From Alphaproteobacteria bacterium (GTDB lineage: Bacteria; Pseudomonadota; Alphaproteobacteria; Rs-D84), in NCBI GenBank assembly GCA_017618175.1, contig JAFZUT010000006.1, positions 1 through 63,012 on the forward strand: DNA of 63,012 nucleotides, in the 5' to 3' direction. The translations under genes and the position numbers were made by a program. Below are positions 1-63,008 of the stretch, in pieces (the stretch's first letter is position 1; each line of letters opens with the position of its first letter). The notes beneath the pieces were generated by a model. That model saw nothing but the letters and a program-made list of their open reading frames with translations. It had not been told where the DNA came from and searched no databases.

Positions 1-55
1 CGATTTGGCAATGGCGCGGATATGCCGGTTTTTGTATTCAAACTGGTCAAAAAAA

Positions 56-147
56 GGTACCTTTTTGTCCACCACTTTTTTTAGAAAATGTGATTCAGTA
101 AAATCAATGACTTACGAAATCTTGCGGGGTGGTCAAAAAAAGGTACC
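56..147. promoter_or_regulatory. Putative invertible promoter segment, type A (locus 1)
   Basis: GGTACC palindromic cores with A/T tracts at 56-61 and 142-147, 86 bp apart. The internal sequence recurs at 6092-6183, 25230-25321 and 41115-41206. IHF-consensus AATCAATGACTTA at 102-114; TGT-TACACT -10-like box at 152-160. Confidence 0.75.
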
Positions 148-188
148 TTTTTGTTACACTGTAATGCGAGGAATAAAGGGGAAATATT

Positions 189-710
189 ATGAAACAAGCA
201 TTATTCATCGGTGCAATTGCATCCGTTTTATCAATCAATGCATTTGCAGAAACAACAACATCAACCGTAACGTCCAAAAATTATGTCGATGCCCAAGACG
301 CATTGAAACAAAATAAAATACCTGCGGCGGGAACAAACGCATCAACCCCCGGTGAAACCGTTGTTACATATACAACAACCGGTAACGGTGTAATCGGTGA
401 ACGTGGAATTTTTAATTATGATACGGACTATGATTGGGACAATCACTCGGTGGAAACGGGACACGAAGGTGACTTGGTCACCGCCGGCGATGTTATGCCA
501 CAACTGGATTATTTATCCGGTGTTTACCAGGTTGATAAATATTGCACAGAATGGTCCGGAACACCGTATACGGATGAAAACTGTTTATTATGGTATATCG
601 GGGATAATATTATGGGCCCCTACAATCTGTGCCAAACTGACTCAGATTGCGATGGATGTGATGGTTGTATTAACGGCCTTTGTAAAGACGATGGAAGATG
701 TGATACGTAA
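189..710 (+). CDS. Secreted Cys-rich protein, dispersed family member 1 (MKQALF-type signal peptide)
   Basis: Signal peptide, conserved TVTSKNYVDAQDALKQ block, CxEW..CLLW motif and Cys-rich tail; AAGGGG RBS upstream. Confidence 0.85.
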   Translation: MKQALFIGAIASVLSINAFAETTTSTVTSKNYVDAQDALKQNKIPAAGTNASTPGETVVTYTTTGNGVIGERGIFNYDTDYDWDNHSVETGHEGDLVTAGDVMPQLDYLSGVYQVDKYCTEWSGTPYTDENCLLWYIGDNIMGPYNLCQTDSDCDGCDGCINGLCKDDGRCDT

Positions 711-742
711 AAAAACATGGGTGCGAATTCGCGCCCAACTTT

Positions 743-2122
743 TTAATCTTTCTTATCTTCTTCCTTTTTAACCGGTTCTGCCATTTTAGACATTGCGATA
801 ACCATTTCCATACCGCGTTGTAATTGGTAATCGCGCGCGTCTTTTTCCGCATCGGTTAAATCTTTCTCGTCATCTTCATCATCTTTTTTACCGGATTTTT
901 CTTTGGCTTTTGCTTTCTTTTCCGCCGCATCGTTCTTTAATGAATTGCGGAAAGACGCCTCGGAATACGCGCTTTCGCGCTTTTCAATTGGTTCGACTTT
1001 GGATTGCAAAACTTCAACATCCGGGGTAATCCCAGTGTTTTGAATAGATGTACCACTGGGCGTATAATACCGTGCAATTGTTATATGAATTGCCGTTCCG
1101 TCCCCAAGTGGCTTTTGTTGTTGCACACTGCCCTTGCCAAAACTTTGTGAACCCATAATAATTCCGCGCTTATTATCTTGGATTGCGCCGGCAACAATTT
1201 CCGATGCCGATGCAGACCCATGATTGATAAGCACAACCAACGGTTTCCCATTTGTTAAATCACCGGGTTTGGCAAAACTTCTGTCTATATCGGTTTTATT
1301 TTTTCCGCGGGTTGATACAATTTCCCCGCCATCCAAGAAAGCATCGGATACATCAATTGCCGCGGTTAAATATCCCCCCGGATTGTTTCGCACATCCAAC
1401 ACATAGCCTATCACTTTCTTTTTTTCCAAAGATTTAATTGCTTCACGCAAATCTTTTGCGGTTGTTGCCCCAAAGTCAGATATACGAATGTAGCCAATTT
1501 TGGGCGCATCGGTGTCCGCATCCGCCAATTGTTTTTCTTCAAACTTTATCGATTTAACCTTGATAATTGCACGTTTAAGTGTGATTGTTTTCGGTTCATT
1601 ATCACCAGAAATAACGGTCAGTTTTACTTTCGTTCCGGGTTTGCCCTTCATTTTCTTGACTGCCTGATTCAATGTCAAATCAAACACCGGTTCATCATCA
1701 ATATGTGTAATATAATCGCCGGCCTTGATTCCCGCATTATCCGCCGGTGTATCATCAATCGGTGAAATAACGCGCACCGCCCCACGGTCAGATGTAATTT
1801 GAATGCCCAGTCCGCCAAATTCACCGGTGGATTTATCATTAAAATCTTTGAAATCGTCTTTGTTCAAATACGAAGAATGCGGGTCCAGCGCCGACAGCAT
1901 CCCGTTCATTGCGGCCTCAAGCATCTTGCGTTCATCGGCTTCTTCGACAAAGTTTTCACGCGACACTTCGAACACCAGTGCCAATTTTTTCAATTCATCA
2001 TAAATCTGTTCATCGGTCAGGTGCTCAATCGGTTCTTCTTTTTTATTCTTATCGGCCGCCGCCGCAACATTCACCACCACCGGCAAACACATTACACACA
2101 AAACCAGAATTTTTTTCAACAT
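743..2122 (-). CDS. ctpA: Carboxyl-terminal processing protease, S41 family
   Basis: LDPHS motif, PDZ domain (GLGIQI), DVRNNPGG, SASASEI and FGKGSVQ motifs. Confidence 0.92.
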   Translation of the reverse strand: MLKKILVLCVMCLPVVVNVAAAADKNKKEEPIEHLTDEQIYDELKKLALVFEVSRENFVEEADERKMLEAAMNGMLSALDPHSSYLNKDDFKDFNDKSTGEFGGLGIQITSDRGAVRVISPIDDTPADNAGIKAGDYITHIDDEPVFDLTLNQAVKKMKGKPGTKVKLTVISGDNEPKTITLKRAIIKVKSIKFEEKQLADADTDAPKIGYIRISDFGATTAKDLREAIKSLEKKKVIGYVLDVRNNPGGYLTAAIDVSDAFLDGGEIVSTRGKNKTDIDRSFAKPGDLTNGKPLVVLINHGSASASEIVAGAIQDNKRGIIMGSQSFGKGSVQQQKPLGDGTAIHITIARYYTPSGTSIQNTGITPDVEVLQSKVEPIEKRESAYSEASFRNSLKNDAAEKKAKAKEKSGKKDDEDDEKDLTDAEKDARDYQLQRGMEMVIAMSKMAEPVKKEEDKKD

Positions 2123-3110: not shown

Positions 3111-3152
3111 ACTTTATTATATAATACAAAAATCATATTTTGTCAAACAAAA

Positions 3153-5440: not shown

Positions 5441-5537
5441 CAAAATCGCCCTTTTTATATTAGTATAATTTTACCAAAATCCGCACGATATTCAATGAAA
5501 AAGTAGCAAAACAAAAATCCGCCCATCAGGGCGGATC

Positions 5538-6041
5538 TTACATCATACAACCCGGTCCGTTAAAACATACCCCATTATTGCCAGAACAACAATAACCACT
5601 CGGACAATCTCGGGCTGAATTGCATGATTGACCAATAACACGTTTTTCAGCCAATTCCCACAAAATACAACTGCTATCAACATGTATCTCACTGTTCCAT
5701 TCTACACAGGTTTTATATGTAACCGTCGTTTCTGGCAGGTTTGTTGCACTTTGTAACAAATCCCGTGTCACCAAGAAATTATCATTACAATCTCCATCAC
5801 CATCCGCATCAGCATCACAAATTCCACGTTCACCCAATACACCCGCTTCATCGGTGTATGTAACAACCGTTTCTCCAACACCGTTTTCCTCGTAATTGAC
5901 CCATGCTTCTGGTATCGTATTTTGTTTCAATGCGTCTTGGGCATCGACATAGTCCCGTGATGTGACGGTGGATGATGTTGCGTATGCATTTAACGCCAAA
6001 ACCGATGCAATTGCACCGATGCTAAGAATTGAAATCCTCAT
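5538..6041 (-). CDS. Secreted Cys-rich protein, family member 2 (MRISIL-type signal peptide)
   Basis: Same conserved N-terminus; body closely similar to 57583-58092. Confidence 0.85.
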   Translation of the reverse strand: MRISILSIGAIASVLALNAYATSSTVTSRDYVDAQDALKQNTIPEAWVNYEENGVGETVVTYTDEAGVLGERGICDADADGDGDCNDNFLVTRDLLQSATNLPETTVTYKTCVEWNSEIHVDSSCILWELAEKRVIGQSCNSARDCPSGYCCSGNNGVCFNGPGCMM

Positions 6042-6091
6042 ATTCCCTTCCTTTGTTATGCTTGTTTGGTATGTTTATATGGTAACAAAAA

Positions 6092-6183
6092 GGTACCTTT
6101 TTGTCCACCATTTTTTTTAGAAAATGTGATTCAGTAAAATCAATGACTTACGAAATCTTGCAGGGTGGTCAAAAAAAGGTACC
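6092..6183. promoter_or_regulatory. Putative invertible promoter segment, type A, flipped relative to its gene (locus 2; predicted ON)
   Basis: GGTACC at 6092-6097 and 6178-6183. On the minus strand it reads TGGACA (6107-6102), 17 bp, TACCAT (6084-6079). Confidence 0.75.
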
Positions 6184-6251
6184 TTTTTGTGACCAGCTAC
6201 CCCACCGCGTCCCGCGGTCCCCCCCTTCACGAAACGTGAAGGGGATTTATA

Positions 6252-6290
6252 AAAAACCGGCGGATTCCCGCCGGTTTTCACTAACCACTA
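6252..6290 (-). repeat. TAGTGGTTAGTGAAAACCGGCGG-N4-CCGCCGGTTTTT hairpin repeat / terminator
   Basis: Reverse-complement copy of the elements at 36055-36093 and 57390-57428. Confidence 0.75.
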
Positions 6291-6307
6291 TCCACTTACA
6301 CTAACCA

Positions 6308-7171
6308 CTAATACAACCCGAACTTGGTTATATAGTTAAATGAAATGCCGATTATAAAATTGCTGCCGTAATGTTCGGCGTCACGCGCCTTGGCACGGCG
6401 ATATTGAACATACGGTCCCATTGTAAAATCACCCCACAGGTTCGTATCCATACGCGCAACTACGCTTAAATCCCGTTCCAAATCTGTGCCAACATATTGG
6501 GAATAGTCCAGATACTCACGATAGTACCCATTTGTTGATAATTTTACCCCATCGCGAACACCGTATTCCAAACGCCAACCGATTTCGGCGGCCAGTTTGC
6601 TGACCTGGTCATGGCCGTATGTGAAATCATATTCATAAACGCCCGCGATATATAATTCTTTGATAATCGGCGAATCAAACACCGAAAAACCGGCCATACC
6701 GCGCAGCACCTTTAACCGGTTGTCCGAATCGTTTGCCGGCACGAATTCCGTTTCATACGCCGCACGCACCATTGGCCCCAATTTGAAAGAATCAAAATCC
6801 CAACACGCATAGTTCAAATTACTGGTCGCCAAGATTTTATCTGCGCTTTCGTTGACCAATGTTTCACCATCATACGGCTTTATCTTTGTCCGACCGTATT
6901 CCATAAACAAAGAATTATCCCAATTGAAACGGTCATGTTTATATTCCAAGGCCGTATCAAAAACACCTTTGATAAATTCTTGATCATCGGCACTTAATGC
7001 AGAAATCGGCGAACCTTGGTATTCCCCCGAATGGCGAACCGTGGTTTTCGACAAATCCAACCCTATTCGGCGAATATTCAAAATCAATTCTTTGCCCGCC
7101 AAATCGACATCGTCTGCATATGCCACGAATGGCAACAACGCCGCACACATAAATACAGAAAATTTTTTCAT
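6308..7171 (-). CDS. Predicted outer-membrane beta-barrel protein (DUF3078/DUF481-like)
   Basis: Signal peptide, amphipathic beta-strands, aromatic C-terminus. Confidence 0.6.
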   Translation of the reverse strand: MKKFSVFMCAALLPFVAYADDVDLAGKELILNIRRIGLDLSKTTVRHSGEYQGSPISALSADDQEFIKGVFDTALEYKHDRFNWDNSLFMEYGRTKIKPYDGETLVNESADKILATSNLNYACWDFDSFKLGPMVRAAYETEFVPANDSDNRLKVLRGMAGFSVFDSPIIKELYIAGVYEYDFTYGHDQVSKLAAEIGWRLEYGVRDGVKLSTNGYYREYLDYSQYVGTDLERDLSVVARMDTNLWGDFTMGPYVQYRRAKARDAEHYGSNFIIGISFNYITKFGLY

Positions 7172-7189
7172 AATCGCCCCCATATTAAA

Positions 7190-7807
7190 TTATTTGGAAA
7201 TATACAAAACACCGTCACGATCTTGGTAATGCCACCCGGCATCACGCAATGCAATGGTCAACGCCCCACGTCGCGCCGCCGGCACCCGAAAAGTCATTTG
7301 ATTTCCATCTATGGTTTTTGTATTCAAATCAATGCCATTATCCGCCGCGATTCTGCGCACGCGCGACCAATCAGTCAATTTATTATTCAACGACACAACA
7401 ACCCACGATTCGTGTCCGGCATCATCACCATCGCCCAACCAATTTTGAACACCGTTCGACACCAACCAATTCCGCGCCGCGTTGCGGTCAACCGTCATTG
7501 TTATATTTGCAGAATATGTCGTATCAGATTGTTTTTCGCCACTTATTCCTGAACTTTCAATAAGTGTTGTTAAAACGGCGGACTTTTCATTTTTAACCGC
7601 GGCACGCAACGCGGTTGAATCCGCATATGGCGATAATGCGTCAACAATAACCTGACGCCGGGCCTCATCCATTGCCATATTTTTTGCCGTTGCGGCGGTA
7701 TCACTGGTCACATTAACATGCGCGGTCGCGGTCAACGGTGCACCAAATGCGCCACCGGCCACCAACATAACCGCACCAAACACCAAGAATCTTATTATCG
7801 TTCCCAT
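7190..7807 (-). CDS. Secreted hypothetical protein
   Basis: Signal peptide; 205-aa ORF co-oriented with its neighbours. Confidence 0.7.
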   Translation of the reverse strand: MGTIIRFLVFGAVMLVAGGAFGAPLTATAHVNVTSDTAATAKNMAMDEARRQVIVDALSPYADSTALRAAVKNEKSAVLTTLIESSGISGEKQSDTTYSANITMTVDRNAARNWLVSNGVQNWLGDGDDAGHESWVVVSLNNKLTDWSRVRRIAADNGIDLNTKTIDGNQMTFRVPAARRGALTIALRDAGWHYQDRDGVLYISK

Positions 7808-7822
7808 ACGTCAACCACCGAT

Positions 7823-9361
7823 TTAGAATTTTGCCTGGACCCCGATACGGATGCCCATAGATTTATAAACCGATTCGATTTCATTGTCAACTTTGCACAC
7901 CCAACCCGGACATTCGTTTTTAATTTTTACAATGTTCTGGGCGGTTGGATCATTTGCCAACATATCGGATTCAGTATATCCTGCATCAATCCACGCCTGC
8001 AACAGTTCATTATAAATGCCGTTATAATACCCACTGTTCAGATAAGTGTTCGCCTCGCCACCCGACATAGTGTAATAATCGAACGTGAATCCAACGGTCA
8101 ATGCAACGGTATCGGTTAATGCCGTCATATAATTTGCACCCAAGCCAATATGCCACGCATCACCAAATCCGCCCTTGTCTTCCACGCTTTTTGGATGTTG
8201 CCAATCAGACCGATACGGTTGATCACCGGTCGCGGTATAAAGCGGCAATCCAAATTCAAGACGTGCATTCACCAAATTATACCTGTCAATTTCATAATCT
8301 AAATCCAATGCCAAATATGGCCCCATCCATGTTGTTTCGTACGAATGGCTAACCCCCGGTAATTTGAACATATATGTTCCACCGGTGTTCACGCCATCGG
8401 CCCCGGCACCAATCACCCAGAAACCATTGGCATCAACCGCCGGATTCCACAAAACTTGTTGAGTGTCATTGTTATAATGTATCAAAACAATCGGGTCACA
8501 TTGAATTTCATCGCCACCCGCAGATGTCCCAGAACAATACCCGGTATCAACGGTTAAACCATAATCTTGTTTTGTTTCCAATTTTGTCCGCAAATAACGG
8601 AACCCAATCGACGGTGTCAAACGCGCAGACCCCAACTTCATAAAATCACTTAACCCAAATCCAATGTTAAATCCCATCATATCGCCACTAGTACTGTTGC
8701 CAATGGAAAGCGAATGACCAATCTGCTGACCAATATATTCATCAACATTCGGGTCATATTGTTGGTTACCGTTCACATCGTCCCACCATTCGGTCACCAG
8801 ATAACCACCATTTGTAATATCGTCATCAATCATTGGTGAATCGCCAAATTGCATACCATAACGGAATCCGGCATCAATCTGCATTTTTGTATTTCCACCA
8901 AAACGATACCCCGCCGTAATATCCAACACGTTCCAACGCAGGTTGTCATAGTGCAACTTACTGCCCGCGTCTTTCATTTCAAAGTTCCAATTTGCAAATT
9001 CGTGCGATAGTCCGCCACCCAGCCAGAATCCATCACCCTTTTGAATATTTGTGCCGTTTGCACCCGATGTTTTGGTTGTTTGCGTCCGTGTTTGCTGTTC
9101 TGTGCCAACCACACGTGTATATCCGTTATATGGTTGCCCGATATACGCATTATCATTTGGCGTAACGGTCCGCGTACGGGTGTATGTGGTATCTTGACTG
9201 TAATTAGTGGTTTTTGCGCGATTGGCATAACCACTGGTCGAATAATTTCTTTGTGGCGAATTATAATTTCCCGTGTAATAGGTCCCCGCCGCGGCCGCAA
9301 TTCCCGGCATCAATGCAAACAAAGAGCAATTCAAAACAAATGAACAAAGTCTTTTTCCCAT
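7823..9361 (-). CDS. Predicted outer-membrane beta-barrel protein (omptin-like pattern)
   Basis: Signal peptide, Thr-rich N-region, beta-strands, terminal IRIGVQAKF with C-terminal Phe. Confidence 0.6.
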   Translation of the reverse strand: MGKRLCSFVLNCSLFALMPGIAAAAGTYYTGNYNSPQRNYSTSGYANRAKTTNYSQDTTYTRTRTVTPNDNAYIGQPYNGYTRVVGTEQQTRTQTTKTSGANGTNIQKGDGFWLGGGLSHEFANWNFEMKDAGSKLHYDNLRWNVLDITAGYRFGGNTKMQIDAGFRYGMQFGDSPMIDDDITNGGYLVTEWWDDVNGNQQYDPNVDEYIGQQIGHSLSIGNSTSGDMMGFNIGFGLSDFMKLGSARLTPSIGFRYLRTKLETKQDYGLTVDTGYCSGTSAGGDEIQCDPIVLIHYNNDTQQVLWNPAVDANGFWVIGAGADGVNTGGTYMFKLPGVSHSYETTWMGPYLALDLDYEIDRYNLVNARLEFGLPLYTATGDQPYRSDWQHPKSVEDKGGFGDAWHIGLGANYMTALTDTVALTVGFTFDYYTMSGGEANTYLNSGYYNGIYNELLQAWIDAGYTESDMLANDPTAQNIVKIKNECPGWVCKVDNEIESVYKSMGIRIGVQAKF

Positions 9362-9459
9362 CTTTCACTCCATACTATTATCAAACCTATTTTATCATAA
9401 AAATATTGAAAAAAAAACAGGATTATGTAAAATGCCATCGGTTTTTTATCAAACCATGT

Positions 9460-9544
9460 GCGGATATGGCGGAATTGGTAGACGCTCAGCACTAAGGATG
9501 CTGTGGAGAAATCCGTGGGGGTTCAAGTCCCCCTATCCGCACCA
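9460..9544 (+). tRNA. tRNA-Leu, anticodon AAG
   Basis: Acceptor stem GCGGATA/TATCCGC, anticodon stem CAGCA/TGCTG with loop CT-AAG-GA, long variable arm, GGTTCAAGTCC T-arm, encoded CCA. Confidence 0.92.
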
Positions 9545-9616
9545 AGAATTATCACATTTGGCGCATTTTCTGCTTGCCCGAAAAATCAAAATTTTGCTAA
9601 CCTGTATGCGAAAGGG

Positions 9617-12430
9617 ATGAAGAATCTTAGACTGCTTTTTGGTGTATGCCTTGGCGTGCTTGCCCTGCGTGGCGCGCATGGCGCGGATTACGATGAAATT
9701 GCGCGCGCCGCATCACGCACGACCGCAACAAATGTTTCAACATCTGCCCCATCGCGCGGTGCAAACACAATAACCCAATCACAAAAATCATCCGCCACGG
9801 CAACAACGCGTTCGGGTGCAACAAATGCGCGTACGGCAATCGCACCTGTGGCGGCCGAACCGCGCAGTGCAACAAAAAACGTCGCCGCACGCACCACAAC
9901 CACAACAACCGTTGCACCACGCGTAACCACCGCCACACGTTCAACCGACACATCGGTAACGGCGCGCACCACCCGGCCAACCACGACGGCACGCAGTGCG
10001 ACAAAATCACGCAACGCAACACCCGTTGCGCGGTCTGGGGCGCGCACATCATCCGCACGCGCGGCGCGCACGGTGTCACGTGCGGCCACGAACGAATCGC
10101 CGGTATTGAACACGAACTATACCCGTTGCCGTGAAATTTATTACGAATGTATGGATGAATTCTGCGCAAACAAGGACGCAAATCTGCGCCGCTGTGCATG
10201 CTCGTCCCGGGCGAACGAATTTGAAAACACGAAAAAAAATCTTTCCAATTTTGAAGACAAAATGTTGGAATTTAACCAACGATTATTACTGGTGAATTTA
10301 GATGCCGAAGATGTCGATGCCATAAACCAATCGACCGCGGGCGAAGATGCGTTCTATGCAACCAAAGACAAAACCAAATCTAAACAGGCGTTGGACGACA
10401 TCGCCAAGAAATTGAACACAACATTTGGCGACGACGGTTTTGGGACATCACTTGCGCCGATATCGTTGTCGTTGAACATAGATTCTGCATTTGACACGGT
10501 CGATTCGTTTATGGGTTCGGACACGACGGCCAAATCTGGCACGGCATTGTATAATGCGGCAATTCCAATTTGCCGTGAAACCGCACTGGAGGTTTGTACC
10601 GAAGACGAATTATCTTTGGCAATCGGCGGATATTTAATGTTAATGGAACAAGATTGCAACACCGTGCAAAAGGCATACCAGGCCCAGGCCGATGCCGCCC
10701 GCACCAAAGTATTCGAATCGGGCGCACTGCTTGATATGTCGCGCCTTGACGCGTATCAAACCCGCAACGCAGACGATATTTTGACATGCAAACGCAAAAT
10801 GATGGAAATGTTAACCAACACCACGGTTTGCGGCGCAAATATGGAAAAGTGCCTTGATATGACGGGCAAATATATCGACCCAACAACCGGCGCGGCTTTC
10901 TTGACCGCGAACCTTTCGGATTTGGGTTCGCTGATTACCCGGCCCGATGCAAATCAGTCTTGGACATCGGCAAACGGCGCCGGCAAATTTATAACATATT
11001 TGAAAAATAAAAAGCAATTCTTGGCGCCGGCTATGGAAAATTGCCAAGACATCGCAGACACGGTTTGGGACGCGTTTATCGAAGACGCATTGGCGCAAAT
11101 CAAATTGGCCCAAGATGCCAAATTGGAAGAAATACGCCAGGCATGCACCACATTAACGACCGAATGTTTAACATCGGCCAACGATTCGATTGGGGAATTT
11201 GATTCGCGTGCATTATCGGTATTTGGGGTGGCGGCGAATCGCACCGTTAACGCAATGTGCGCCGATGTCCGCAATTCTTGCACGGCGTTGATGGGCGCGA
11301 CCGGCGACACGTCTTGGGAATCCGGTGTATCTGCAATTGCCACCGCCACCACGTATGACAGTATTATAACCAGTTGCACCCAGGTTGGCCGCAATTGCAT
11401 CATACAATCTTGCCGGTCGATTTCCGGGAACTTTGATTTGTGCGATGACCCGATTTTCTCGCCAAATCGGCACGCGATATTGGAACGCACGGCATGCTGG
11501 CCCGAAGTGTTGTCCTGTGTCGCGGCGGCCGGGAATGATGCAGTGTTGGCGATTATGGAATCTTTGGGTAAAGATCCGGATGACACTTTCTATCGTGATT
11601 TATACGGCAATAATGCGACACCAATTCACGATATATGCGCCAACAATTATTGCACAACCGATGCAGAATGCGCCACATGCCGCATTGCCGAACGCATCTG
11701 GGGCAATTGCGAGGCCGCACCCACCGACACCATTGGCGGCACCGGCAATGGCCACAATCGTGTATGGATGCCGCGCACAAAAAACGATACATTATTGTCT
11801 TGGTTTGCGATAAACACCGGCACCGCCGCATCCAATGGCACATCCAGTGATGACCGCAGTTGTGTCAACACCCGTTGCACATCGGACGCGTATTATCCGG
11901 GCTATATTGGCCCAGAGCCAGAAAATCAAATCTGTATCCCGGACGGCGACCAAAGCGGTAATATAACCGACGACGGCCTGTATTGCCCGATTGATCCCGG
12001 CAACCAAATGCGAATAATGAATGGCCTGACCAATTGTTGTTATAATCGGTCGGACAACGGTTGGGGGCACACACCGCTGAGTGAAAACGCATGCTGTGAA
12101 ACCGGCAACGTCATTGATGGCATCTGTATGCCAGAAGATGAAACAAAATACAAAAAAACGGCTCAAAGGGGCAACGACGGACCAATCATCGTATGCATCG
12201 GCAACGAAACTGTTAGTGGTTCAAACAACCCATTAAAGGTTAATTGTTCTGGTACATTTATACAAATCGACCCGGACAACAAATACACCGAACATCAAAA
12301 GACCGGTACCGGCCAAAGCGGCCCCCAATATACCCCTCGTATGGTTTATTATCTGATTGGCGACGACGCCCACAACGAGCCACAAACCACAACCGGAACC
12401 GATGCATGGTTTATACGATATGACGAGTAG
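9617..12430 (+). CDS. Large secreted protein with Thr/Arg/Ala-rich N-region and Cys-rich domains
   Basis: Start moved to ATG 9617 (after AAGGG RBS, clear of the tRNA); signal peptide; many Cys residues. Confidence 0.75.
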   Translation: MKNLRLLFGVCLGVLALRGAHGADYDEIARAASRTTATNVSTSAPSRGANTITQSQKSSATATTRSGATNARTAIAPVAAEPRSATKNVAARTTTTTTVAPRVTTATRSTDTSVTARTTRPTTTARSATKSRNATPVARSGARTSSARAARTVSRAATNESPVLNTNYTRCREIYYECMDEFCANKDANLRRCACSSRANEFENTKKNLSNFEDKMLEFNQRLLLVNLDAEDVDAINQSTAGEDAFYATKDKTKSKQALDDIAKKLNTTFGDDGFGTSLAPISLSLNIDSAFDTVDSFMGSDTTAKSGTALYNAAIPICRETALEVCTEDELSLAIGGYLMLMEQDCNTVQKAYQAQADAARTKVFESGALLDMSRLDAYQTRNADDILTCKRKMMEMLTNTTVCGANMEKCLDMTGKYIDPTTGAAFLTANLSDLGSLITRPDANQSWTSANGAGKFITYLKNKKQFLAPAMENCQDIADTVWDAFIEDALAQIKLAQDAKLEEIRQACTTLTTECLTSANDSIGEFDSRALSVFGVAANRTVNAMCADVRNSCTALMGATGDTSWESGVSAIATATTYDSIITSCTQVGRNCIIQSCRSISGNFDLCDDPIFSPNRHAILERTACWPEVLSCVAAAGNDAVLAIMESLGKDPDDTFYRDLYGNNATPIHDICANNYCTTDAECATCRIAERIWGNCEAAPTDTIGGTGNGHNRVWMPRTKNDTLLSWFAINTGTAASNGTSSDDRSCVNTRCTSDAYYPGYIGPEPENQICIPDGDQSGNITDDGLYCPIDPGNQMRIMNGLTNCCYNRSDNGWGHTPLSENACCETGNVIDGICMPEDETKYKKTAQRGNDGPIIVCIGNETVSGSNNPLKVNCSGTFIQIDPDNKYTEHQKTGTGQSGPQYTPRMVYYLIGDDAHNEPQTTTGTDAWFIRYDE

Positions 12431-12504
12431 TCCCGGCGCAAGACCTTGACAAAACAATATTTTTTACTATAATGTACTTGAACAGAACAAAAGGGGGGCA
12501 ACCC

Positions 12505-12951
12505 ATGAAATTCAAACATAAATACAATATTGGCAAAACATTGTCATTGGCGGGTCTAATGATGCTGGCAACCGCATGCAATAAAGAGCGTGATGTTATA
12601 ATTGATTGGGAATGGGGGTCGGGACTTGACGCGACCACACAAAAGGAAATTATAAGAAAAGAAATTAATAAAAAAAATGTTAATATGATATTTCTGGATT
12701 TTGGTGAACAAAATTTAACAGATTGGTATCCGGCCGCTTTTCACAGGGCTCGTGATACCTTACAAACATGCCTTGATATGGCTCCGGGTCGAATTCACGG
12801 TATGGGAACGATATACGTAAGCTCGCAAGATGGCGCGCACCTGCCAGATGTCACCGCAAGATTTCCATGTGGCATGGGATTGGAAGACAGCCTTTGGTAC
12901 ACCGCAAACGGTTGGAAAGTCCAACGTCTTCATCCAGAATGGATAAAATAA
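12505..12951 (+). CDS. Putative lipoprotein
   Basis: Lipobox LATAC; AAGGGGG RBS; TTGACA-17-TACTAT/TATAAT promoter-like sequence upstream. Confidence 0.65.
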   Translation: MKFKHKYNIGKTLSLAGLMMLATACNKERDVIIDWEWGSGLDATTQKEIIRKEINKKNVNMIFLDFGEQNLTDWYPAAFHRARDTLQTCLDMAPGRIHGMGTIYVSSQDGAHLPDVTARFPCGMGLEDSLWYTANGWKVQRLHPEWIK

Positions 12952-13025
12952 AAAATTTATCATAAAGGGCGTTCTAACGCCTTTTATTATTGAAACAAAA
13001 ATTTTTATATGATAACTTTGAAACT

Positions 13026-14000
13026 ATGAGAATGTTTCTACTTTTTATATTATTGCTTTGTCCTATAGCGACCAATGCTGTGGTAACGCCGGAGTACTGT
13101 GCCGATTTTACATATACTCCTGATACATGCAAAAATACGGCTGGTTGTCGCTATAACGATACTCTAAGAGAATGCACACAATGCCCTGAGGGTACATACT
13201 GTCCCAATAACCATAACAATCAACCACAGAATTGCCCCCAACCATCATTTTCCCAATCCGATAAAGGTTCAACATCTCCGGAAGAATGTTTTCAAAGCCC
13301 GATAACCTGCAAAAAAGCCGATGATTCTAATGACACCCAATGTCGCCACTATAACAACACCACCGACCCGTACAGATGCGGTGATAACCACGATATTTCC
13401 GCACATATGGAAGGTACACAGTGTTATTATAACACACGAAACTGTGACAAATTTGGTACACCAAGTGGGTGCAACGGTGGCACCGTTACCGGCCAGGCCC
13501 TGTGGGCGACAGAAGATGAAGAATGGTACATTAACGGAAATATATATTATTGTCAATGCGAACAAGGAAACGTGGAATATCCAACCGCTTCCTGTACTGC
13601 AACCGTCGTAAAAAGACCAACATCGGGCAACCCGACATCTGCAAACGCATCCATCACATATGGTAACGTATCATCATATTACTGTACACAATGTCCACCG
13701 GGTTATTATGTCCACATTGAAAATGGTTTTTTGCCGACAACAAATTGTACCGGTGGCAATACCGTGTGTGTATGTGATATCGCTAACCCAGGTCATTACA
13801 GCACCGGCTGCGGACCATTTAGTAACAACATAACAAACCATGCCTTTTGTCCATATCAAGACTGTCCATTTGGACAAACAAGCCCAGAGGGCGCAACCGC
13901 GATAACAGATTGTAATTATGCATCACAAACACAATTCTGTGATGCCAAGGGATGTTTTACCTTGGGCACCGATGCCACAAATTGGCGTGCATTATATTAA
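13026..14000 (+). CDS. Secreted Cys-rich repeat protein
   Basis: Signal peptide; repeated CTQCPxGxY and CPxGQTSxxGA-like motifs. Confidence 0.7.
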   Translation: MRMFLLFILLLCPIATNAVVTPEYCADFTYTPDTCKNTAGCRYNDTLRECTQCPEGTYCPNNHNNQPQNCPQPSFSQSDKGSTSPEECFQSPITCKKADDSNDTQCRHYNNTTDPYRCGDNHDISAHMEGTQCYYNTRNCDKFGTPSGCNGGTVTGQALWATEDEEWYINGNIYYCQCEQGNVEYPTASCTATVVKRPTSGNPTSANASITYGNVSSYYCTQCPPGYYVHIENGFLPTTNCTGGNTVCVCDIANPGHYSTGCGPFSNNITNHAFCPYQDCPFGQTSPEGATAITDCNYASQTQFCDAKGCFTLGTDATNWRALY

Positions 14001-14521
14001 CCCACCAATTTTATTTCATCTAATGTTTTTTCTATTGTTGACATTTGGTCATCGGTGAAACGGCCCAAAACCCAATCCGCCGCATCAATCGGCAACCCCA
14101 GATTCCGTGGGTGGTCAATTCCAATCCGTATGCGTGTATATTCCGCGCCAACATTTGCATCGATGGACTTTATTCCGTTGTGACCGGCACTGCCGCCGCC
14201 GACCTTGGTGCGCATATCGCCCAATTTCAAATCCATATCGTCATGAATTACAAATAAATTTTCAATTGGAATCTTGTAAAAATCCATTATTGCGCGCACT
14301 GCGCGGCCACTGTCGTTCATAAATGTTTGTGGCATCGCAAATATCACGCGCCGCCCGTCCACATTTGTGGCAAATGTTTTTGCAAACAATTCCCCGCGCC
14401 AATGCGCATCGACCCCCGCCAAATGTTTTACCGCCATAAATCCAACATTATGACGTGTGCGTTCGTATTCGGTCCCGGGATTCCCCAGGCCAACAATTAA
14501 AATCGGTTTATTTTCTTGCAT
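13997..14521 (-). CDS. pth: Peptidyl-tRNA hydrolase
   Basis: VGLGNPG, TRHNVGF, HDDMD and GHNGIKS motifs. Confidence 0.96.
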   Translation of the reverse strand: MQENKPILIVGLGNPGTEYERTRHNVGFMAVKHLAGVDAHWRGELFAKTFATNVDGRRVIFAMPQTFMNDSGRAVRAIMDFYKIPIENLFVIHDDMDLKLGDMRTKVGGGSAGHNGIKSIDANVGAEYTRIRIGIDHPRNLGLPIDAADWVLGRFTDDQMSTIEKTLDEIKLVG

Positions 14522-14567
14522 ATGTTTTTCTCTTTTTTTATTATATTATCATACAAAGGAGCAAAAG

Positions 14568-15107
14568 ATGAAGTTAAAAACATCAATTATTTTATGTGCC
14601 GCCGCAATGACCACAACTGTGCCCGCATTCGCAAACCCGGTTTGGGATTTATATGTTGGTGCAACAATTGGCGCCGGCGCAGAAACTGTATTTGCCGATG
14701 ATAAAAATGAAACCAATGCCGCGCAGTCTTTTGGCGGAATGTTCGGGGTTGACCTGCCGGCGTTTCGGGTCGAGGCCGAATATAATTACCTTAGCGAGAC
14801 AGATTTGCACGCGCACCTTGGGATGTTAAATGCGTATTTCAAAATGCCGTCCACGGTTATTAAACCGTACCTGGGGCTGGGTGTGGGGTTGATGTTTGGG
14901 GGCGAAAACGAAAAGGCCCATGTCGATTTCGATACAACCGCCGCATACCAAGGTATGTTGGGTGTGACCTTTGACCCGACCGCATTACCGTTCAAATTTG
15001 ATATCGAAGGTCGCGCAATCTATATGCCGGATGTGTACAAGGTCGCCGATATTCAACCGGACATTTTGCATTACGAAGCGCGCATCAAAATCCGCTATAT
15101 ATTCTAA
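14568..15107 (+). CDS. Small outer-membrane beta-barrel protein (OmpA-TM/opacity-like)
   Basis: Signal peptide, RVEAEY, KPYLGLGVG, terminal RYIF. Confidence 0.75.
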   Translation: MKLKTSIILCAAAMTTTVPAFANPVWDLYVGATIGAGAETVFADDKNETNAAQSFGGMFGVDLPAFRVEAEYNYLSETDLHAHLGMLNAYFKMPSTVIKPYLGLGVGLMFGGENEKAHVDFDTTAAYQGMLGVTFDPTALPFKFDIEGRAIYMPDVYKVADIQPDILHYEARIKIRYIF

Positions 15108-15151
15108 ATTAAACGGGGCGGCAACGCCCCAAAATGTTTAATGGGGGCAAT

Positions 15152-17920: not shown

Positions 17921-17930
17921 AATTCAATAA

Positions 17931-19196: not shown

Positions 19197-19217
19197 GGGG
19201 CACATTATAATGGTTTT

Positions 19218-23423: not shown

Positions 23424-23469
23424 AACCTTGGTATTCTATGCTATAATTCCGGAAAATAAAGGAAAAAGT

Positions 23470-24024: not shown

Positions 24025-24026
24025 AG

Positions 24027-24682: not shown

Positions 24683-25189
24683 TTAGCAGAACTGGTCTGT
24701 GCAAAAACCATTTACACATGCCCCACCACAAGAAAAACCATGACCGGCGCAATCGTTATCCGTATCACAGGACACCACGTCCCTTCCGTTCCACGGATCG
24801 TTACAATCATACGATGGTTCGCCCACGGCCATCAATAAACAGTTATTATTCGAATCATATTCCGAGCAATATACATTTGGCATTGCGTTATATACACATT
24901 CTGTTGCACGTGCTGCAACATCCGCCGTCACCAATTTATTCGCATCTGTATTCTCGTTATACCTGTTTCCGGCATATATTCCGCGTTCACCGATTGTGCC
25001 GGCGGTAGATGTATATGTGACAACGGTATCACCCGGCGTAGCACTGTTCGTGCCGGTGACGGGTATTTTATCTTGTTTCAATGCATCTTGGACATCGACA
25101 TAGTCCCGTGATGTGACGGTTGAACTTGTTGCGTATGCGTTGAACGCTAAAACTGATGCAATTGCACCAATGAATAATGCTTGTTTCAT
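24683..25189 (-). CDS. Secreted Cys-rich protein, family member 3 (MKQALF type)
   Basis: Likely start at 25189 after the shared RBS; body closely similar to 62490-63008. Confidence 0.85.
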   Translation of the reverse strand: MKQALFIGAIASVLAFNAYATSSTVTSRDYVDVQDALKQDKIPVTGTNSATPGDTVVTYTSTAGTIGERGIYAGNRYNENTDANKLVTADVAARATECVYNAMPNVYCSEYDSNNNCLLMAVGEPSYDCNDPWNGRDVVSCDTDNDCAGHGFSCGGACVNGFCTDQFC

Positions 25190-25229
25190 AATATTCCCCT
25201 TTATTCCTCGCTGTACAGTGTAACAAAAA

Positions 25230-25406
25230 GGTACCTTTTTTTGACCACCCCGCGAGATTTCGTAAGTCATTGATTTTACTGAATCGTATTTTCTAAAAAA
25301 AGTGGTGGACAAAAAGGTACCTTTTTGTCCACCATTTTTTTCAAAAAATTTTCTCAGTAATTTCAATGGTCCAATTTTTGACCGAGGTGGTGGTCATAAA
25401 GGTACC
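25230..25406. promoter_or_regulatory. Double switch: segments A and B back to back with three GGTACC sites, between divergent family genes (locus 3)
   Basis: GGTACC at 25230, 25316 and 25401; perfect 32-bp palindrome at 25303-25334. Confidence 0.75.
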
Positions 25407-25456
25407 TTTTTGTTACCATATAAACATACCAAACAAGCATAACAAAGGAAGGGAAT

Positions 25457-25912
25457 ATGAGGATTTCAATTCTTAGTATCGGTGCAATCGCATCCGTTTT
25501 AGCATTAAATGCATTTGCAACAACATCAACCGTCACATCACGGGATTATGTGGACACCCAAGATGCATTGAAACAGGATTTAATTGAGACAGATGATACC
25601 TATTGGGATGGTTATTTTGGTGTGACTGATACATTGGTAAGTAATGATGCGGAAGATGGCGATGGTATACAAGGCTATAAGTATGGGATATTTACAGATT
25701 CGTATGATATCAATAATATGGGGGGAGTTAGGTGGATTCTTTATAATGAAGACGCTTATCTGATTGGTAAAACCATACCAACCACTGCTGCCACCGCGGA
25801 CCTTATAAGAAATGCGACAAAAATGACATGCGTAGAGTATATAGGTGGACAGCAAAATGGTGTTCCGGAAGATTGCCTTCTTTGGCGAATGCCGGATAAC
25901 GCGGTTTGGTAG
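25457..25912 (+). CDS. Secreted protein, family member 4 (MRISIL type)
   Basis: Conserved N-terminus, TCVEY..CLLW motif, no Cys-rich tail. Confidence 0.85.
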   Translation: MRISILSIGAIASVLALNAFATTSTVTSRDYVDTQDALKQDLIETDDTYWDGYFGVTDTLVSNDAEDGDGIQGYKYGIFTDSYDINNMGGVRWILYNEDAYLIGKTIPTTAATADLIRNATKMTCVEYIGGQQNGVPEDCLLWRMPDNAVW

Positions 25913-40120: not shown

Positions 40121-41062
40121 TTAATTCTTGTTCCACAACCAACAATTTGCATCGGTGTGAGTTGCATCATATGTTGTTGTACCATCCGGCCACCCGGCAC
40201 AGGTCATTTTCGCCTGGGCATATGTGGTGACACCGGCCATTGTTGGTATTTTCGCGGAATCATTTGTCGCATTGTACGCCGCCGCACCGGTATATGTCGC
40301 AACCGAACCACCAACCACACCATTTGAATTATATGTGACAACATTACCCGCCGTCCCGGTCGGCAGTGTCACCTGGTTATTACTAATCGCCGCCATAACC
40401 GCACCCATTGTGGGAATGGAAATTTTTTGAATTGCCTTTTGATTGGCCGTTAAATTTGATGCTTGGTAATTTGGTACATCACTTTCCTCGATTATCTTAC
40501 GTTCACCAACAACATTGTCCATACCCGTTCGAGTAGCGATACCTGTTCCTTTGACACGAATATTCAAATAGTCAAACGTGCTCCCCCCGGATCCTTCCGT
40601 ATAAGCATTTGTAACTCCAGAACCATTAATTTCTCCATAACCAGATTTTGGAATCCTATTTTGCAAATAATTATTCATATTGTCCCAAATTAATCGTGTT
40701 TCGTTTGCCACGGCACGAACCGTCGGTATCATTTTATCTGTGATTGTGGTACTCAATACTTCTACGCTATCGCTAAAACCCCACAACCCATCACCGTCAC
40801 TTACGATACCAGCAATTTCATTGTTCACAATACCGTATTCATCCCCAACCAATCCATTTGTTGTGTCGTATGAAACAACGGTGGGGATTTCAAAATCATC
40901 TCCATAGGCACTAAATTCCATAGTGTCCGCATTGATTAAATCTTGTTTCAATGCATCTTGGGCATCAACGTAACCCCGTGAAGTCACGGTTGATGATGTT
41001 GCGTATGCATTGATTGATAAAACGGATGCAATTGCACCGATGCTAAGAATTGAAATCCTCAT
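40121..41062 (-). CDS. Secreted protein, family member 5 (long form, MRISIL type)
   Basis: Likely start at 41062; conserved N-terminus; ends in TCAGW..CWLW. Confidence 0.85.
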   Translation of the reverse strand: MRISILSIGAIASVLSINAYATSSTVTSRGYVDAQDALKQDLINADTMEFSAYGDDFEIPTVVSYDTTNGLVGDEYGIVNNEIAGIVSDGDGLWGFSDSVEVLSTTITDKMIPTVRAVANETRLIWDNMNNYLQNRIPKSGYGEINGSGVTNAYTEGSGGSTFDYLNIRVKGTGIATRTGMDNVVGERKIIEESDVPNYQASNLTANQKAIQKISIPTMGAVMAAISNNQVTLPTGTAGNVVTYNSNGVVGGSVATYTGAAAYNATNDSAKIPTMAGVTTYAQAKMTCAGWPDGTTTYDATHTDANCWLWNKN

Positions 41063-41114
41063 ATTGTCCCTTCCTTTGTTATGCTTGTTTGGTATGTTTA
41101 TATGGTAACAAAAA

Positions 41115-41206
41115 GGTACCTTTTTTTGACCACCCTGCAAGATTTTGTAAGTCATTGATTTTACTGAATCGCACTTTCTAAAAAAAGTGATGGACAAAAA
41201 GGTACC
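41115..41206. promoter_or_regulatory. Putative invertible promoter segment, type A (locus 4; predicted OFF)
   Basis: GGTACC at 41115 and 41201. The interior is the reverse complement of 6098-6177 while the gene-proximal leader is nearly identical. Confidence 0.75.
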
Positions 41207-41229
41207 TTTTTTTTGACCAGTTTGTACAC

Positions 41230-57428: not shown

Positions 57429-57450
57429 GTTTTCAAACTGGTCAAAAAAA

Positions 57451-57541
57451 GGTACCTTTTTGTCCACCATTTTTTTCAAAAAAATTTTTCAGTAATTTCA
57501 ATGGTCCAATTTTTGACCGAAGTGGTGGTCATAAAGGTACC
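57451..57541. promoter_or_regulatory. Putative invertible promoter segment, type B (locus 5)
   Basis: GGTACC at 57451 and 57536; interior nearly identical to 25322-25400; flanks match locus 1. Confidence 0.75.
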
Positions 57542-57582
57542 TTTTTGTTACACTGTAATGCGAGGAATAAAGGGGAAATATT

Positions 57583-58092
57583 ATGAAACAAGCATTATTC
57601 ATTGGTGCAATCGCATCTGTTTTATCGATCAACGCATACGCAACTTCATCCACGGTTACATCCAAAGATTACGTAGATGCCCAAGACGCATTGAAACAAG
57701 ACACTATACCCGAGGCGGGTGTCAATGCCGATGAAAACGGTGGCGGAGAATCGGTTGTTACATATACTGATGCAGAGGGCGTACTTGGTGAACGAGGAAT
57801 TTGTGATTCGAATGCAAATGCCGATGGTGGTTGTGATGATAATTTCTTAGTTACGCGGGATTTATTGCGAAATGTGGAAAATCTGCCAACACGCACGGTG
57901 ACATATAAAACGTGTTATGAATGGTCTGGAACCCCGCATACAGATGCAAATTGTATATTATGGAACTTATCGGATAGGAAGGTAAAAGGTTGCATTGAAA
58001 GCGGTATAACCGGTGAAAACGTATGTCAAAACGATGCGCAATGCTGTAGCAGAATGTGCGTCGATGGTTATTGCATGGAACCACAATATTAG
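57583..58092 (+). CDS. Secreted Cys-rich protein, family member 6 (MKQALF type)
   Basis: Conserved N-terminus; body similar to 5538-6041. Confidence 0.85.
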   Translation: MKQALFIGAIASVLSINAYATSSTVTSKDYVDAQDALKQDTIPEAGVNADENGGGESVVTYTDAEGVLGERGICDSNANADGGCDDNFLVTRDLLRNVENLPTRTVTYKTCYEWSGTPHTDANCILWNLSDRKVKGCIESGITGENVCQNDAQCCSRMCVDGYCMEPQY

Positions 58093-61987: not shown

Positions 61988-62024
61988 TTTGTGATATTAT
62001 ATCATAAAAAAGGTGGTAAATAAA

Positions 62025-62453
62025 ATGTTAAAAATCTGGACAGACGGCAGTTGCCTGGGCAACCCCGGCCCTGGCGGGTGGGCATTCGTTGCAACCGACG
62101 GAAAAAATATTGCACACCGCAGTGGTGGTGAAGCCAACACCACAAACAATCGTATGGAATTGATGGCGGTTATTCGCGCAATTACCGCGGCACATCGCCA
62201 CAGTGAAATAGAAATTCACACCGACAGCCAATATGTAAAAAACGGTATGCAAACATGGATAAAAAATTGGCGCAAGAATAATTGGCGCACTGCGGATAAA
62301 AAGCCGGTAAAAAACCAAGACCTGTGGCAGAAACTGGATGAATTGGCGGGTGCGATAAAAATTCATTGGGTTTGGGTACGTGGCCACAACGGCGAAGAAT
62401 TTAACGAAATGTGTGACACGCTTGCACGCACCGCCGCCGAGAAATTGAAATAA
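62025..62453 (+). CDS. rnhA: Ribonuclease HI
   Basis: TDGSCLGNPGPGGW, TTNNRMEL, TDSQY and WVRGH motifs. Confidence 0.96.
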   Translation: MLKIWTDGSCLGNPGPGGWAFVATDGKNIAHRSGGEANTTNNRMELMAVIRAITAAHRHSEIEIHTDSQYVKNGMQTWIKNWRKNNWRTADKKPVKNQDLWQKLDELAGAIKIHWVWVRGHNGEEFNEMCDTLARTAAEKLK

Positions 62454-62462
62454 ATTTTATAT

Positions 62463-62491
62463 AAAAATACCCGCATCTGCGGGTATTTTTT
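62463..62491. terminator. Bidirectional intrinsic terminator
   Basis: AAAAATACCCGCA-TC-TGCGGGTATTTTT. Confidence 0.75.
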
Positions 62492-63008
62492 AGCACTCAC
62501 CTATACCGCAAATGCCATTGTTACATACTTCGCTGTGGCATCCGTTATTTGGATCGTACCCTGGACAATCAGCATCCACCGTGCAACGTACCGTACCATA
62601 CCACGGTTCATCACAATTATATGATGGTTCACCAACCCCCATCAATAAACAGTTATTATTGGAATCATATTCCGTACAATATATATTTGGCATCGAATTA
62701 TACACACATTCTGTTGCACGATATGCAACATCCGCCGTCACCAATTTATCCGCATCGGTACTTGAATCATAACCATTTGTTCCATCAAAAATTCCACGTT
62801 CACCGATTGTGCCGGCGGTGGATGTATATGTTACAACGGTGTCGCCGGGTGTTGATGCATTCGTTCCGGTCGCCGGTATTTTATTTTGTTTCAATGCATC
62901 TTGGGCATCAACATAATCTTTGGATGTAACCGTGGATGAAGTTGCCAGAACTGAATTGATTGTAATAACCGATGCAATTGCACCGAATGCAAGAATTGAA
63001 ATTCTCAT
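62490..63008 (-). CDS. Secreted Cys-rich protein, family member 7 (MRISIL type)
   Basis: Conserved N-terminus; body similar to 24683-25189; upstream region lies beyond the window end. Confidence 0.85.
   Translation of the reverse strand: MRISILAFGAIASVITINSVLATSSTVTSKDYVDAQDALKQNKIPATGTNASTPGDTVVTYTSTAGTIGERGIFDGTNGYDSSTDADKLVTADVAYRATECVYNSMPNIYCTEYDSNNNCLLMGVGEPSYNCDEPWYGTVRCTVDADCPGYDPNNGCHSEVCNNGICGIGEC

Follow-up and report, generated by a model that had tools for sequence, protein, structure and literature searches.

Several described systems switch genes by inverting DNA. Hin/Gin systems invert one segment of roughly 1-4 kb and need Fis and an enhancer, with hix sites built of A-rich arms around a 2-bp centre, and the E. 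coli fimS element, a single 314-bp locus with a complete promoter inside, is turned by the tyrosine recombinases FimB and FimE and depends on IHF and Lrp. The capsular invertons of Bacteroides fragilis measure roughly 170-230 bp, with Mpi repeats that carry a 10-nt core, ARACGTWCGT (centred on CGTWCG), and the mpl segments of Mycoplasma penetrans measure 135 bp, with 12-bp repeats and recombinases of the tyrosine type. The title of a paper by Patrick and colleagues (2003) likens the B. fragilis repeats to the hin inverted repeats. Mpi inverts 13 dispersed regions in B. fragilis (PMC4747536), and each of 38 mpl genes in M. penetrans is driven by promoter inversion (PMC10502178). In the present study, we analyze a 63,012-nt stretch of alphaproteobacterial DNA (hereafter, the window), which is the entire contig JAFZUT010000006.1 (C26) of a genome of 891,628 bp in 29 contigs that is 95.9% complete (G000). 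Along it, segments of 85-86 bp between palindromic sites stand upstream of paralogous genes for predicted secreted proteins, and our favored explanation, which we hold to be rather probable, is that an Mpi-family serine recombinase flips these segments and that their orientation turns the genes ON or OFF.

Two forms of such a system have been described: in B. fragilis, a master serine invertase acts on dispersed promoter invertons, and in the small genome of M. penetrans, each gene of a large surface family has an invertible promoter. New here are the lineage and the family targeted, a size below 100 bp with quantised lengths, a core of symmetric GGTACC, and a probable split promoter. With Mpi (FinA) of B. 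fragilis, the system has in common the probable NCBIfam family of the enzyme and the many dispersed short regions, here very likely invertible, upstream of surface-related genes. It differs in belonging to the Alphaproteobacteria and a 0.89-Mb genome, in addressing ~29 single genes of one secreted family where B. fragilis has polysaccharide operons, and in its segments of 85-87 bp with a promoter that is seemingly split across the crossover site, whereas the B. fragilis promoter lies inside the segment. With the mpl genes (P35 family) of M. penetrans, it shares a small genome and a large paralogous family of predicted surface proteins in which every gene would have its own invertible promoter; however, the mpl products are lipoproteins encoded in three clusters, whereas here the genes are dispersed and encode proteins with ordinary signal peptides, and a serine recombinase is the candidate enzyme. 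The likeness to fimS lies in the short promoter element, here probably invertible, and a midpoint motif and IHF-like genes here parallel the need of fimS for bending proteins.

The promoter scan, the in-silico segment flips, and the family counts below refer to the source genome G000, and the relatives compared were G067, G121, G179, G165, and G091. The nearest relatives of one window protein come from metagenome-assembled genomes (MAGs) labeled Candidatus Enterousia or “Alphaproteobacteria bacterium”, from goat, sheep, yak, horse, and human gut. Enterousia (order Rs-D84) is described in PMC12306168 as a group of uncultured fermentative gut bacteria with genomes below 1 Mb, and the words “invert”, “phase vari”, and “recombinase” have zero occurrences in that text. 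In the literature, supplements being outside the scope, we found no report of inversions in Enterousia or of the site or midpoint motif described below, no report on invertons with a serine recombinase in reduced Alphaproteobacteria, and, among the papers listed, nothing relevant on split or hybrid promoters with DNA inversion. Literature searches with the Mpi core string and with a 13-mer from the segment midpoint gave no match, and those with 8-mers gave noise only.

The sites are far too numerous to be accidental. The 12-mer AAAGGTACCTTT occurs 11 times exactly in the window (starting at 53, 139, 6089, 6175, 25227, 25313, 25398, 41112, 41198, 57448, and 57533), with one extra match at one mismatch (31872), against an expected count of 0.09; none of 100 shuffles reached 12. 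Genome-wide, it has 52 exact copies, and the looser pattern AAA[CG]GTAC[CG]TTT, which allows C or G beside GTAC, finds 58 sites that form 29 segments in 892 kb. All 29 adjoin a family gene or, at a contig end, a typical family 5' leader, which answers the initial annotation's proposal to count the sites genome-wide and ask whether each sits upstream of a family gene. The centre-to-centre spacing is 86 bp in 24 segments and 85 bp in five; in the window, it is 86 bp in four pairs and 85 bp in two (25313/25398 and 57448/57533). The six window segments stand upstream of six of the seven family genes. The annotation had thus been right that all six genes with visible upstream DNA are preceded by an 85-86-bp segment with palindromic bounds (its “cores” are the GGTACC, 3 bases inside the AAAGGTACCTTT starts) and that the inner arms GTCCACC...GGTGGTC are imperfect inverted repeats.

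Read toward the gene, a typical locus begins with an unrelated upstream gene, followed by CTGGTCAC and the distal site AAAAAGGTACCTTTTT. The segment itself runs from GTCCACC and a T-run through ~68 bp to GGGTGGTC, and on the gene side come the proximal site AAAAAAAGGTACCTTTTT, then GTTACAC or GTTACCA, a Shine-Dalgarno sequence, and the ATG. Segment interiors are of two types, A and B, which have the ends and the midpoint motif in common. The two ends are non-equivalent, one being an A-tract followed by TGGACA and the other GGTGGTCA. The sites are hix-like, with two A-rich arms of ~12 bp (..ACAAAAAGG) flanking a central TA. As this TA is symmetric in G000, G067, and G179, paired sites in these genomes have no intrinsic polarity. 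Most G000 sites read GGTACC, in place of the CGTWCG of the Mpi core, and some are CGTACG variants (C9:793, C17); the sites of G165 and G121 and some of those in G000 (AAACGTTCGT / AAACGTACGT) fit ARACGTWCGT, which we take to be the Mpi core. The initial annotation recognized neither this site nor the protein family from any described system. The system itself proves recognizable, given that the recombinase is Mpi-like and that the relatives' sites have the form AAACG-WW-CGTTT. Two other ideas about the sites were dropped: an upstream insulating hairpin, CCGGCGG..CCGCCGG, lies within 90 bp of only 9 of the 29 segments and is not a defining part, and there is no avoidance of KpnI sites (160 GGTACC observed versus 159.6 expected).

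It is very likely that the segments are invertible, judging from flips between paralogous loci and between species, the only levels at which both orientations are seen. The elements e2 (6089-6175) and e4 (41112-41198) have the same gene-side flank, which makes e4 a direct comparator, and the segment between is reversed, with both junctions inside the 16-bp palindrome. In BLAST, the e2 segment is 96% identical to that of e1 on the same strand, though the genes lie on opposite sides. In G000 as a whole, 28 segments have the GGTGGTC end on the gene side and one, e2, the GTCCACC end. A single orientation fixed across related genomes would have spoken against the annotation's proposal; we find 3 of 11 A-type elements flipped in G067 (31 copies of the same site as in G000; L179-L181), 1 of 20 elements fetched flipped in G121 (66 sites; L209), and 0 of 8 in G179. 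Across the four species, this amounts to 5 flips in 68 elements, all with exact junctions. A 21-mer scan of the Joint Genome Institute (JGI) metagenomes returned 2 short contigs only, and two short JGI contigs whose genes are ~90% alike carry opposite junction types; the exact 15-mer site was not found in 40 relatives. In G121 and G165, moreover, the site centre is asymmetric: in every listed pair (23 of 23 in G121, 3 of 3 in G165), one site reads AA and its partner TT, which is the inverted configuration that a serine invertase requires. The same inverted AA/TT centre is a likeness to Hin/hix and Gin/gix, whereas the symmetric TA of G000 lacks this asymmetry.

The e2 locus has changed too much in two relatives for a true orthologue to be compared in orientation. 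In G179, the locus syntenic to e2 (L162:90-1431, G179:C3; window 5443-6308) has a B-like segment and then two 5'-truncated family open reading frames (ORFs) that lack a start and a signal peptide, one of them joined without a gap to the proximal site; element L145 of the same genome is likewise fused to a truncated family gene. These look like decaying copies. In G067, the flanks of the e2-equivalent locus are 13 kb apart.

The likely enzyme of the switches, to judge from its family and its distribution, is encoded outside the window by a 199-aa ORF (G000:C9:153-752), one of three Resolvase-domain genes in G000, the other two being large (542-550-aa frames). The ORF matches PF00239 with 113.6 bits and the NCBIfam model NF009949 (master DNA invertase Mpi family serine-type recombinase) with 270.4 bits (E 9.1e-81, model positions 2-196 of 203). 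It has the parts of a small serine recombinase, namely an N-terminal resolvase catalytic domain, the RVSS/T nucleophile motif, and a C-terminal DNA-binding part, and its relatives carry helix-turn-helix Pfam matches. The best solved relative is the Gin invertase, in an alignment that takes in IGYIRVSS and SRLGRS; this adds to the likeness with Hin/hix and Gin/gix, whose sites likewise place a 2-bp centre between two A-rich arms of ~12 bp. A 71%-identical MAG protein (P0098) is named Mpi family by NCBI. Orthologues that are 71-93% identical occur in 5 of 5 site-rich genomes tested, and orthologues were found in 19 of 24 sampled congeners. In G000, a B-like segment separates the recombinase gene from a family gene that is transcribed divergently, and the layout is the same in G179 (L033). 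A distant recombinase, of the kind that the initial annotation named in its analogies, thus has a candidate elsewhere in the genome, and as this enzyme is probably of the Mpi family, the analogy with Mpi would become homology at the enzyme level.

The segment that separates the invertase gene from the family gene (G000:C9:753-948; L005) ends on either side in an arm of the GTCC type. Its site on the invertase side is degenerate, reading AAACGTACGTTT next to a poor outer arm. The segment may be locked, or expression of the invertase may be coupled through it to a switch. In the 260 bp upstream of invertase orthologues from many other Enterousia species (L036-L070), there is a region of ~170-190 bp bounded by ..ACAAACCAACGATTGTG.. 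and ..TTGATTTTATCGTTCTATTAAA.., which may be a different type of site and make the invertase self-controlled. A strict inverted-repeat search upstream of the orthologues found no signal (8 of 52 loci versus 5 of 52 control regions).

The geometry of the segments is conserved. The spacing is 85-87 bp in G000, G067, G179, and G165, 85-86 or 107 bp in G121, and 105-106 bp in G091, so that the 85-87-bp and 105-107-bp classes differ by ~two helical turns; one JGI contig, with 133 bp, falls outside the pattern. The motif CAGTAAWWTCAATG lies at the segment midpoint within 0.5 bp. In G165, the motif points the other way with respect to the segment ends, which would suit an architectural site better than a promoter. 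A scan with what we take to be the IHF consensus finds a match in 24 of 29 segments in G000 and 12 of 15 in G067, where 0.011 would be expected per segment. Genes resembling HU, IHF-alpha, and IHF-beta are present in G000, all below equivalog cut-offs. Bending by an IHF-like protein is the hypothesis that these matches suggest, on mixed evidence. In the second length class (G121 L200, L201, L203, L204, L207, L208, L213, and L214, and G091), a terminator-like hairpin, AAAATGGCGG-AAAT-CCGCCATTTT, takes the place of the midpoint motif.

The segment-midpoint 20-mer CAGTAAAATCAATGACTTAC also turns up in nine viral contigs of 34-53% GC (IMG/VR L216-L224); two of these, L219 and L221, have 3-4 near-copies arrayed ahead of a homologous AAA-ATPase gene. 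In the T4-like Stenotrophomonas phage KU682439.2 (~34.6 kb; L225:1490-1600), three copies of a near-identical 16-mer lie directly upstream of TATAAT. This 20-mer matched no Rfam family and nothing in the literature; it may be the site of a widespread host factor.

The promoter scan at e2 gives one sigma-70-like site, TGGACA-17-TACCAT, which is TG-extended and whose spacer is the recombination site itself, and at e3 no site toward the genes. We then flipped each segment in silico at the central TA and scored the gene-side promoter match out of 12. The flip raises the match to 9 (TGGACA-17-TACACT/TACCAT), from 8 or less, in 27 of the 29 segments; e2 already scores 9 unflipped, and the remaining segment is the upstream one of a tandem pair. 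In G067, G179, and G121, the A-tract+TGGAC end, the other end, and the TG-extended -10-like flank recur, with the -10-like hexamer 17-18 bp from the position where TGGACA would land, although the segment interiors differ. In the G121 107-bp class, the hairpin occupies the centre, where an internal promoter would sit, which speaks for a split promoter rather than one within the segment. The initial annotation's multi-locus invertible-promoter system is supported as regards its recombination-type bounds and the clean breakpoints of the flips in e2 and in relatives, but the promoter is probably not wholly inside the segment.

The favored explanation would then work as follows. Each locus would be laid out as distal crossover site, 85/86-bp segment, proximal crossover site, the fixed flank GTTACAC/GTTACCA, ribosome-binding site, and gene, and the single Mpi-family serine recombinase would cut the central dinucleotide of both sites and invert the segments at all loci in trans. 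With the TGGACA end facing the gene, 17 bp from the TG-extended -10-like TACACT/TACCAT in the fixed flank, the recombination site would serve as the promoter spacer and the gene would be ON; the majority orientation would offer no such promoter and leave the gene OFF. In the assembled consensus, 5538-6041 would accordingly be the one gene ON against ~27 OFF, and cells would differ in which members of this secreted, fast-evolving protein family they express. The midpoint motif may bind a DNA-bending protein that lets sites 86 bp apart meet. While the anatomy, the flips, and the family assignment of the enzyme are observed, we infer that the enzyme acts on these sites, that switching is ongoing, which orientation is ON, and that bending takes part.

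Several points weigh against this explanation. As for the enzyme, its NF009949 score is 1.6 bits below the curated cut-off of 272, the 93%-identical orthologue in G067 has no adjoining element (L032), and G000 also encodes four tyrosine and two large serine recombinases, which may be alternative enzymes. A loop of 86 bp is far below the loop lengths of known serine invertases. The IHF-type consensus is found in only 1 of 3 segments in G165 and 0 of 20 in G121, and Fis-type PF02954 (HTH_8) has no match in the 95.9%-complete G000, which in an incomplete genome does not prove absence, while the control matched in 7 of 14 genomes; no enhancer was identified. Lacking a detected Fis-type gene, and with 86-bp segments at many loci, the system departs from Hin/Gin. 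The promoter at e2 is a consensus match, 1 found versus 1.0 expected in the 400-bp region scanned. B-type segments score 8 of 12 in their present state (TGGTCA-17-TACCAT) versus 9 after the flip, so that the predicted ON/OFF contrast is small, and the TG-extended -10 might be active even where the -35 is poor. The 85-bp class of G121 has GTCC-type sequence at either end (GGGACA versus TGGACA). Lastly, the k=31 contigs of four of the 19 sequencing runs listed, all of DNA, end at the repeats over 5800-25750, with no strand-changing joint listed; depth there piles up from paralogues, and loose ends (e.g., at 6102) are ambiguous as to locus, since e4, C5, and C22 have the same flank.

One alternative is the same invertible switch with a different promoter, which we consider unlikely and yet take more seriously than the others. 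Either (a) the majority orientation is ON, so that the bulk of the family would be expressed at once and the flip silences one gene, or (b) the promoter lies wholly inside the segment, e.g., as TTGATT-17-CTAAAA reading out through the GTCCACC end, with the same ON orientation as in the split-promoter model. The segment interior is indeed conserved, including a TTGATT/TTGAAA hexamer, and at the invertase locus an internal promoter candidate points at the invertase gene; however, the internal hexamers are absent from the G121 107-bp class, which keeps the asymmetric ends, and the reversal of the central motif in G165 would be unusual in a promoter. Many loci have a perfect TATAAT or TATAAA after the proximal flank, independently of orientation (“AAAAAA-18-TATAAT” scores 7.5), and the TG-extended -10 could act without a -35. 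Against the alternative, the A-type GGTGGTC end brings no -35-like hexamer at a usable spacing, and a large variable family is no less compatible with a consensus of 28 of 29 loci OFF than with 28 of 29 ON.

The switches could also be fossil or very slow, with rare evolutionary flips, the palindromes now serving as fixed operators or as promoter modules that were duplicated together with the family genes. A dimeric regulator could recognize the palindromic 16-mers, degenerate sites exist (CGTACG with poor arms at C9:793, truncated elements in G179), and the k=31 contigs reveal no heterogeneity at the same locus. We judge this quite improbable in view of the five flips with exact junctions across four species, the intact Mpi-family gene kept in a 0.89-Mb genome and in most congeners sampled, and the conservation of site pairs and spacing while segment interiors diverge. 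Assembly breaks bear on the question as well: 19 of the 58 G000 contig ends lie within 600 bp of a site or family ORF, versus 4.4% of random 600-bp windows, and the assembly thus breaks at the switch system. This is compatible with heterogeneity and also with plain repeats.

Slightly less probable still is that the sites mainly serve other rearrangements, i.e., segment excision, cassette exchange, or large chromosomal inversions, with promoter inversion as a by-product. In its favor, the symmetric TA centre of G000, G067, and G179 leaves paired sites without intrinsic polarity. The solo site L174 (G067:C7:31981), in which the gene-side outer half meets the distal outer half with no segment between, resembles the product that excision would leave. 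The same distal flank is found at G000:C3:7346 and at G067:C15:68758 (L179), joined to different family-gene subtypes and flipped in the G067 copy, which may reflect an exchange between loci at the sites; and in G179, 5'-truncated genes are fused at or near sites. Yet in all 29 G000 segments, the sites form pairs 85/86 bp apart that adjoin a gene start; where relatives have the asymmetric AA/TT centre, it is strictly inverted, which favors inversion; and the family genes have their own starts and signal peptides. Hardly credible is an artifact or selfish repeat, be it an assembly error caused by palindromes or a MITE-like element bounded by terminal inverted repeats. It would account for short repeats bounded by inverted repeats at many contig ends, but the segments keep one and the same position with respect to gene starts and have conserved outer flanks, the e2 segment has substitutions of its own and so is a distinct copy, flips recur in three independently assembled genomes, and G000 encodes a recombinase of the cognate type.

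If the favored explanation is pushed to its full extent, it would describe the smallest serine-invertase switch yet described: an 85-87-bp segment folded at its exact midpoint by an architectural protein (IHF-like), or a 105-107-bp segment folded by a central hairpin, to let crossover sites a mere eight helical turns apart synapse, a split promoter in which the crossover site is the -35/-10 spacer, ~29 switches under one Mpi-family enzyme, a combinatorial secreted repertoire, and a system that is widespread across Candidatus Enterousia and diversifying in its sites. We put this complete picture forward only tentatively, and doubt that all of it will hold.

The genes behind the switches form one family, as the initial annotation had said of seven paralogues set between unrelated housekeeping genes: tblastn with the 189-710 product matches the window at all seven (189, 5556, 24692, 25472, 40820, 57583, and 62514). 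Two of its gene starts require trimming, the real ATG being at 25189 and not 25366, and at 41062 and not 41269 (Table 1). G000 has 44 tblastn matches to the family and 34 ORFs with the N-terminal motif, i.e., at least 34 family genes. The proteins have a signal peptide without a lipobox, a conserved head (T-V-T-S-K-x-Y-V-D...KQ..IP), a variable middle, and a tail that is either a Cys-rich knot (8-11 Cys) or a form with 2-3 Cys. “Cys-rich”, as they had been called, thus fits part of the family; the rest of the 34 motif-bearing ORFs have 2-3 Cys, among them 25457-25912 and 40121-41062 with two each. The family was rightly called uncharacterised. A word-based search returned 109 relatives, every one unnamed or “hypothetical”, and a profile search returned 567 cluster representatives, among them proteins as long as 2278 aa in which the middle module is repeated many times. 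The family has no match in Pfam, PHROGs, or NCBIfam, eight long repeat-bearing relatives scanned contain no Pfam domain, viral contigs and PHROGs yielded no phage relative, and the ESM Atlas gave no usable match. A profile search of the PDB yielded nothing beyond a weak resemblance, below significance (E 0.089), between the Cys-rich tail and a nodule Cys-rich peptide of a plant. We take the family to encode secreted or surface-exposed variable proteins, a prediction to which we commit.

Table 1. Family genes, switch elements, and the promoter-like site in the window (positions in nt of the 63,012-nt contig)
Feature	Position	Strand	Description
Switch e1	53..150		Sites 53-64 and 139-150, centres 86 bp apart; A-type; GTCCACC end distal, GGTGGTC end gene-side (majority orientation)
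Family gene	189..710	+	173 aa, signal peptide, 8 Cys
Family gene	5538..6041	-	167 aa, 10 Cys; sole G000 family gene with flipped switch
Promoter-like site across gene-side recombination site	6079..6107	-	TGGACA, 17-nt spacer, TG-extended TACCAT
Switch e2	6089..6186		Sites 6089-6100 and 6175-6186; flipped; GTCCACC/TGGACA end faces gene
Family gene	24683..25189	-	168 aa, 10 Cys; ATG at 25189
Double switch e3	25227..25409		Sites 25227-25238, 25313-25324, and 25398-25409; between divergent genes, both segments in majority orientation
Family gene	25457..25912	+	151 aa, 2 Cys
Family gene	40121..41062	-	313 aa, 2 Cys; ATG at 41062
Switch e4	41112..41209		Sites 41112-41123 and 41198-41209; A-type, majority orientation
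Switch e5	57448..57544		Sites 57448-57459 and 57533-57544; B-type (85 bp), majority orientation
Family gene	57583..58092	+	169 aa, 10 Cys
Family gene	62490..63008	-	172 aa, 10 Cys; upstream region beyond contig end

In the double switch e3, the A-type 86-bp segment serves the minus-strand gene and the B-type 85-bp segment the plus-strand gene.

A 0.9-Mb genome that keeps at least 2.2% of its DNA on one secreted family, together with a probable master invertase and ~29 putative switches, makes an investment that points to strong fluctuating selection at the cell surface, be it from host immunity, phages, or a partner cell. If the complete picture above is true, a gut alphaproteobacterium that is probably host- or partner-dependent would possess a combinatorial repertoire of secreted proteins, and the switch family offers a concrete handle on the lifestyle of Candidatus Enterousia. 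The 86-bp serine-invertase substrate, with its quantised lengths and midpoint motif, would be a compact model for synapsis of sharply bent DNA. There are practical consequences too: the switch system explains why these MAGs break at these loci, and inverton finders should look below 100 bp.

A GC-rich hairpin repeat (..GCTACCCCACCGCGTCCCGCGG..CTTCACGAAACGTGAAGGGG..) follows the distal site at window positions 6187-6290 and again at G000:C5:297-400 and G000:C13:206-310, and parts of it recur in G067. The window neighbours of the family genes are genes for an S41 protease, TyrRS, a PP-loop ATPase, PBP1, an alpha-2-macroglobulin, a Clp ATPase, and an OmpA-family protein. On the minus strand at 25954-34009, the gene for the bacterial alpha-2-macroglobulin (1907 aa) overlaps the start of that for the PBP1-type transglycosylase/transpeptidase; these two genes are a known pairing, and one that stands out in a genome this small.

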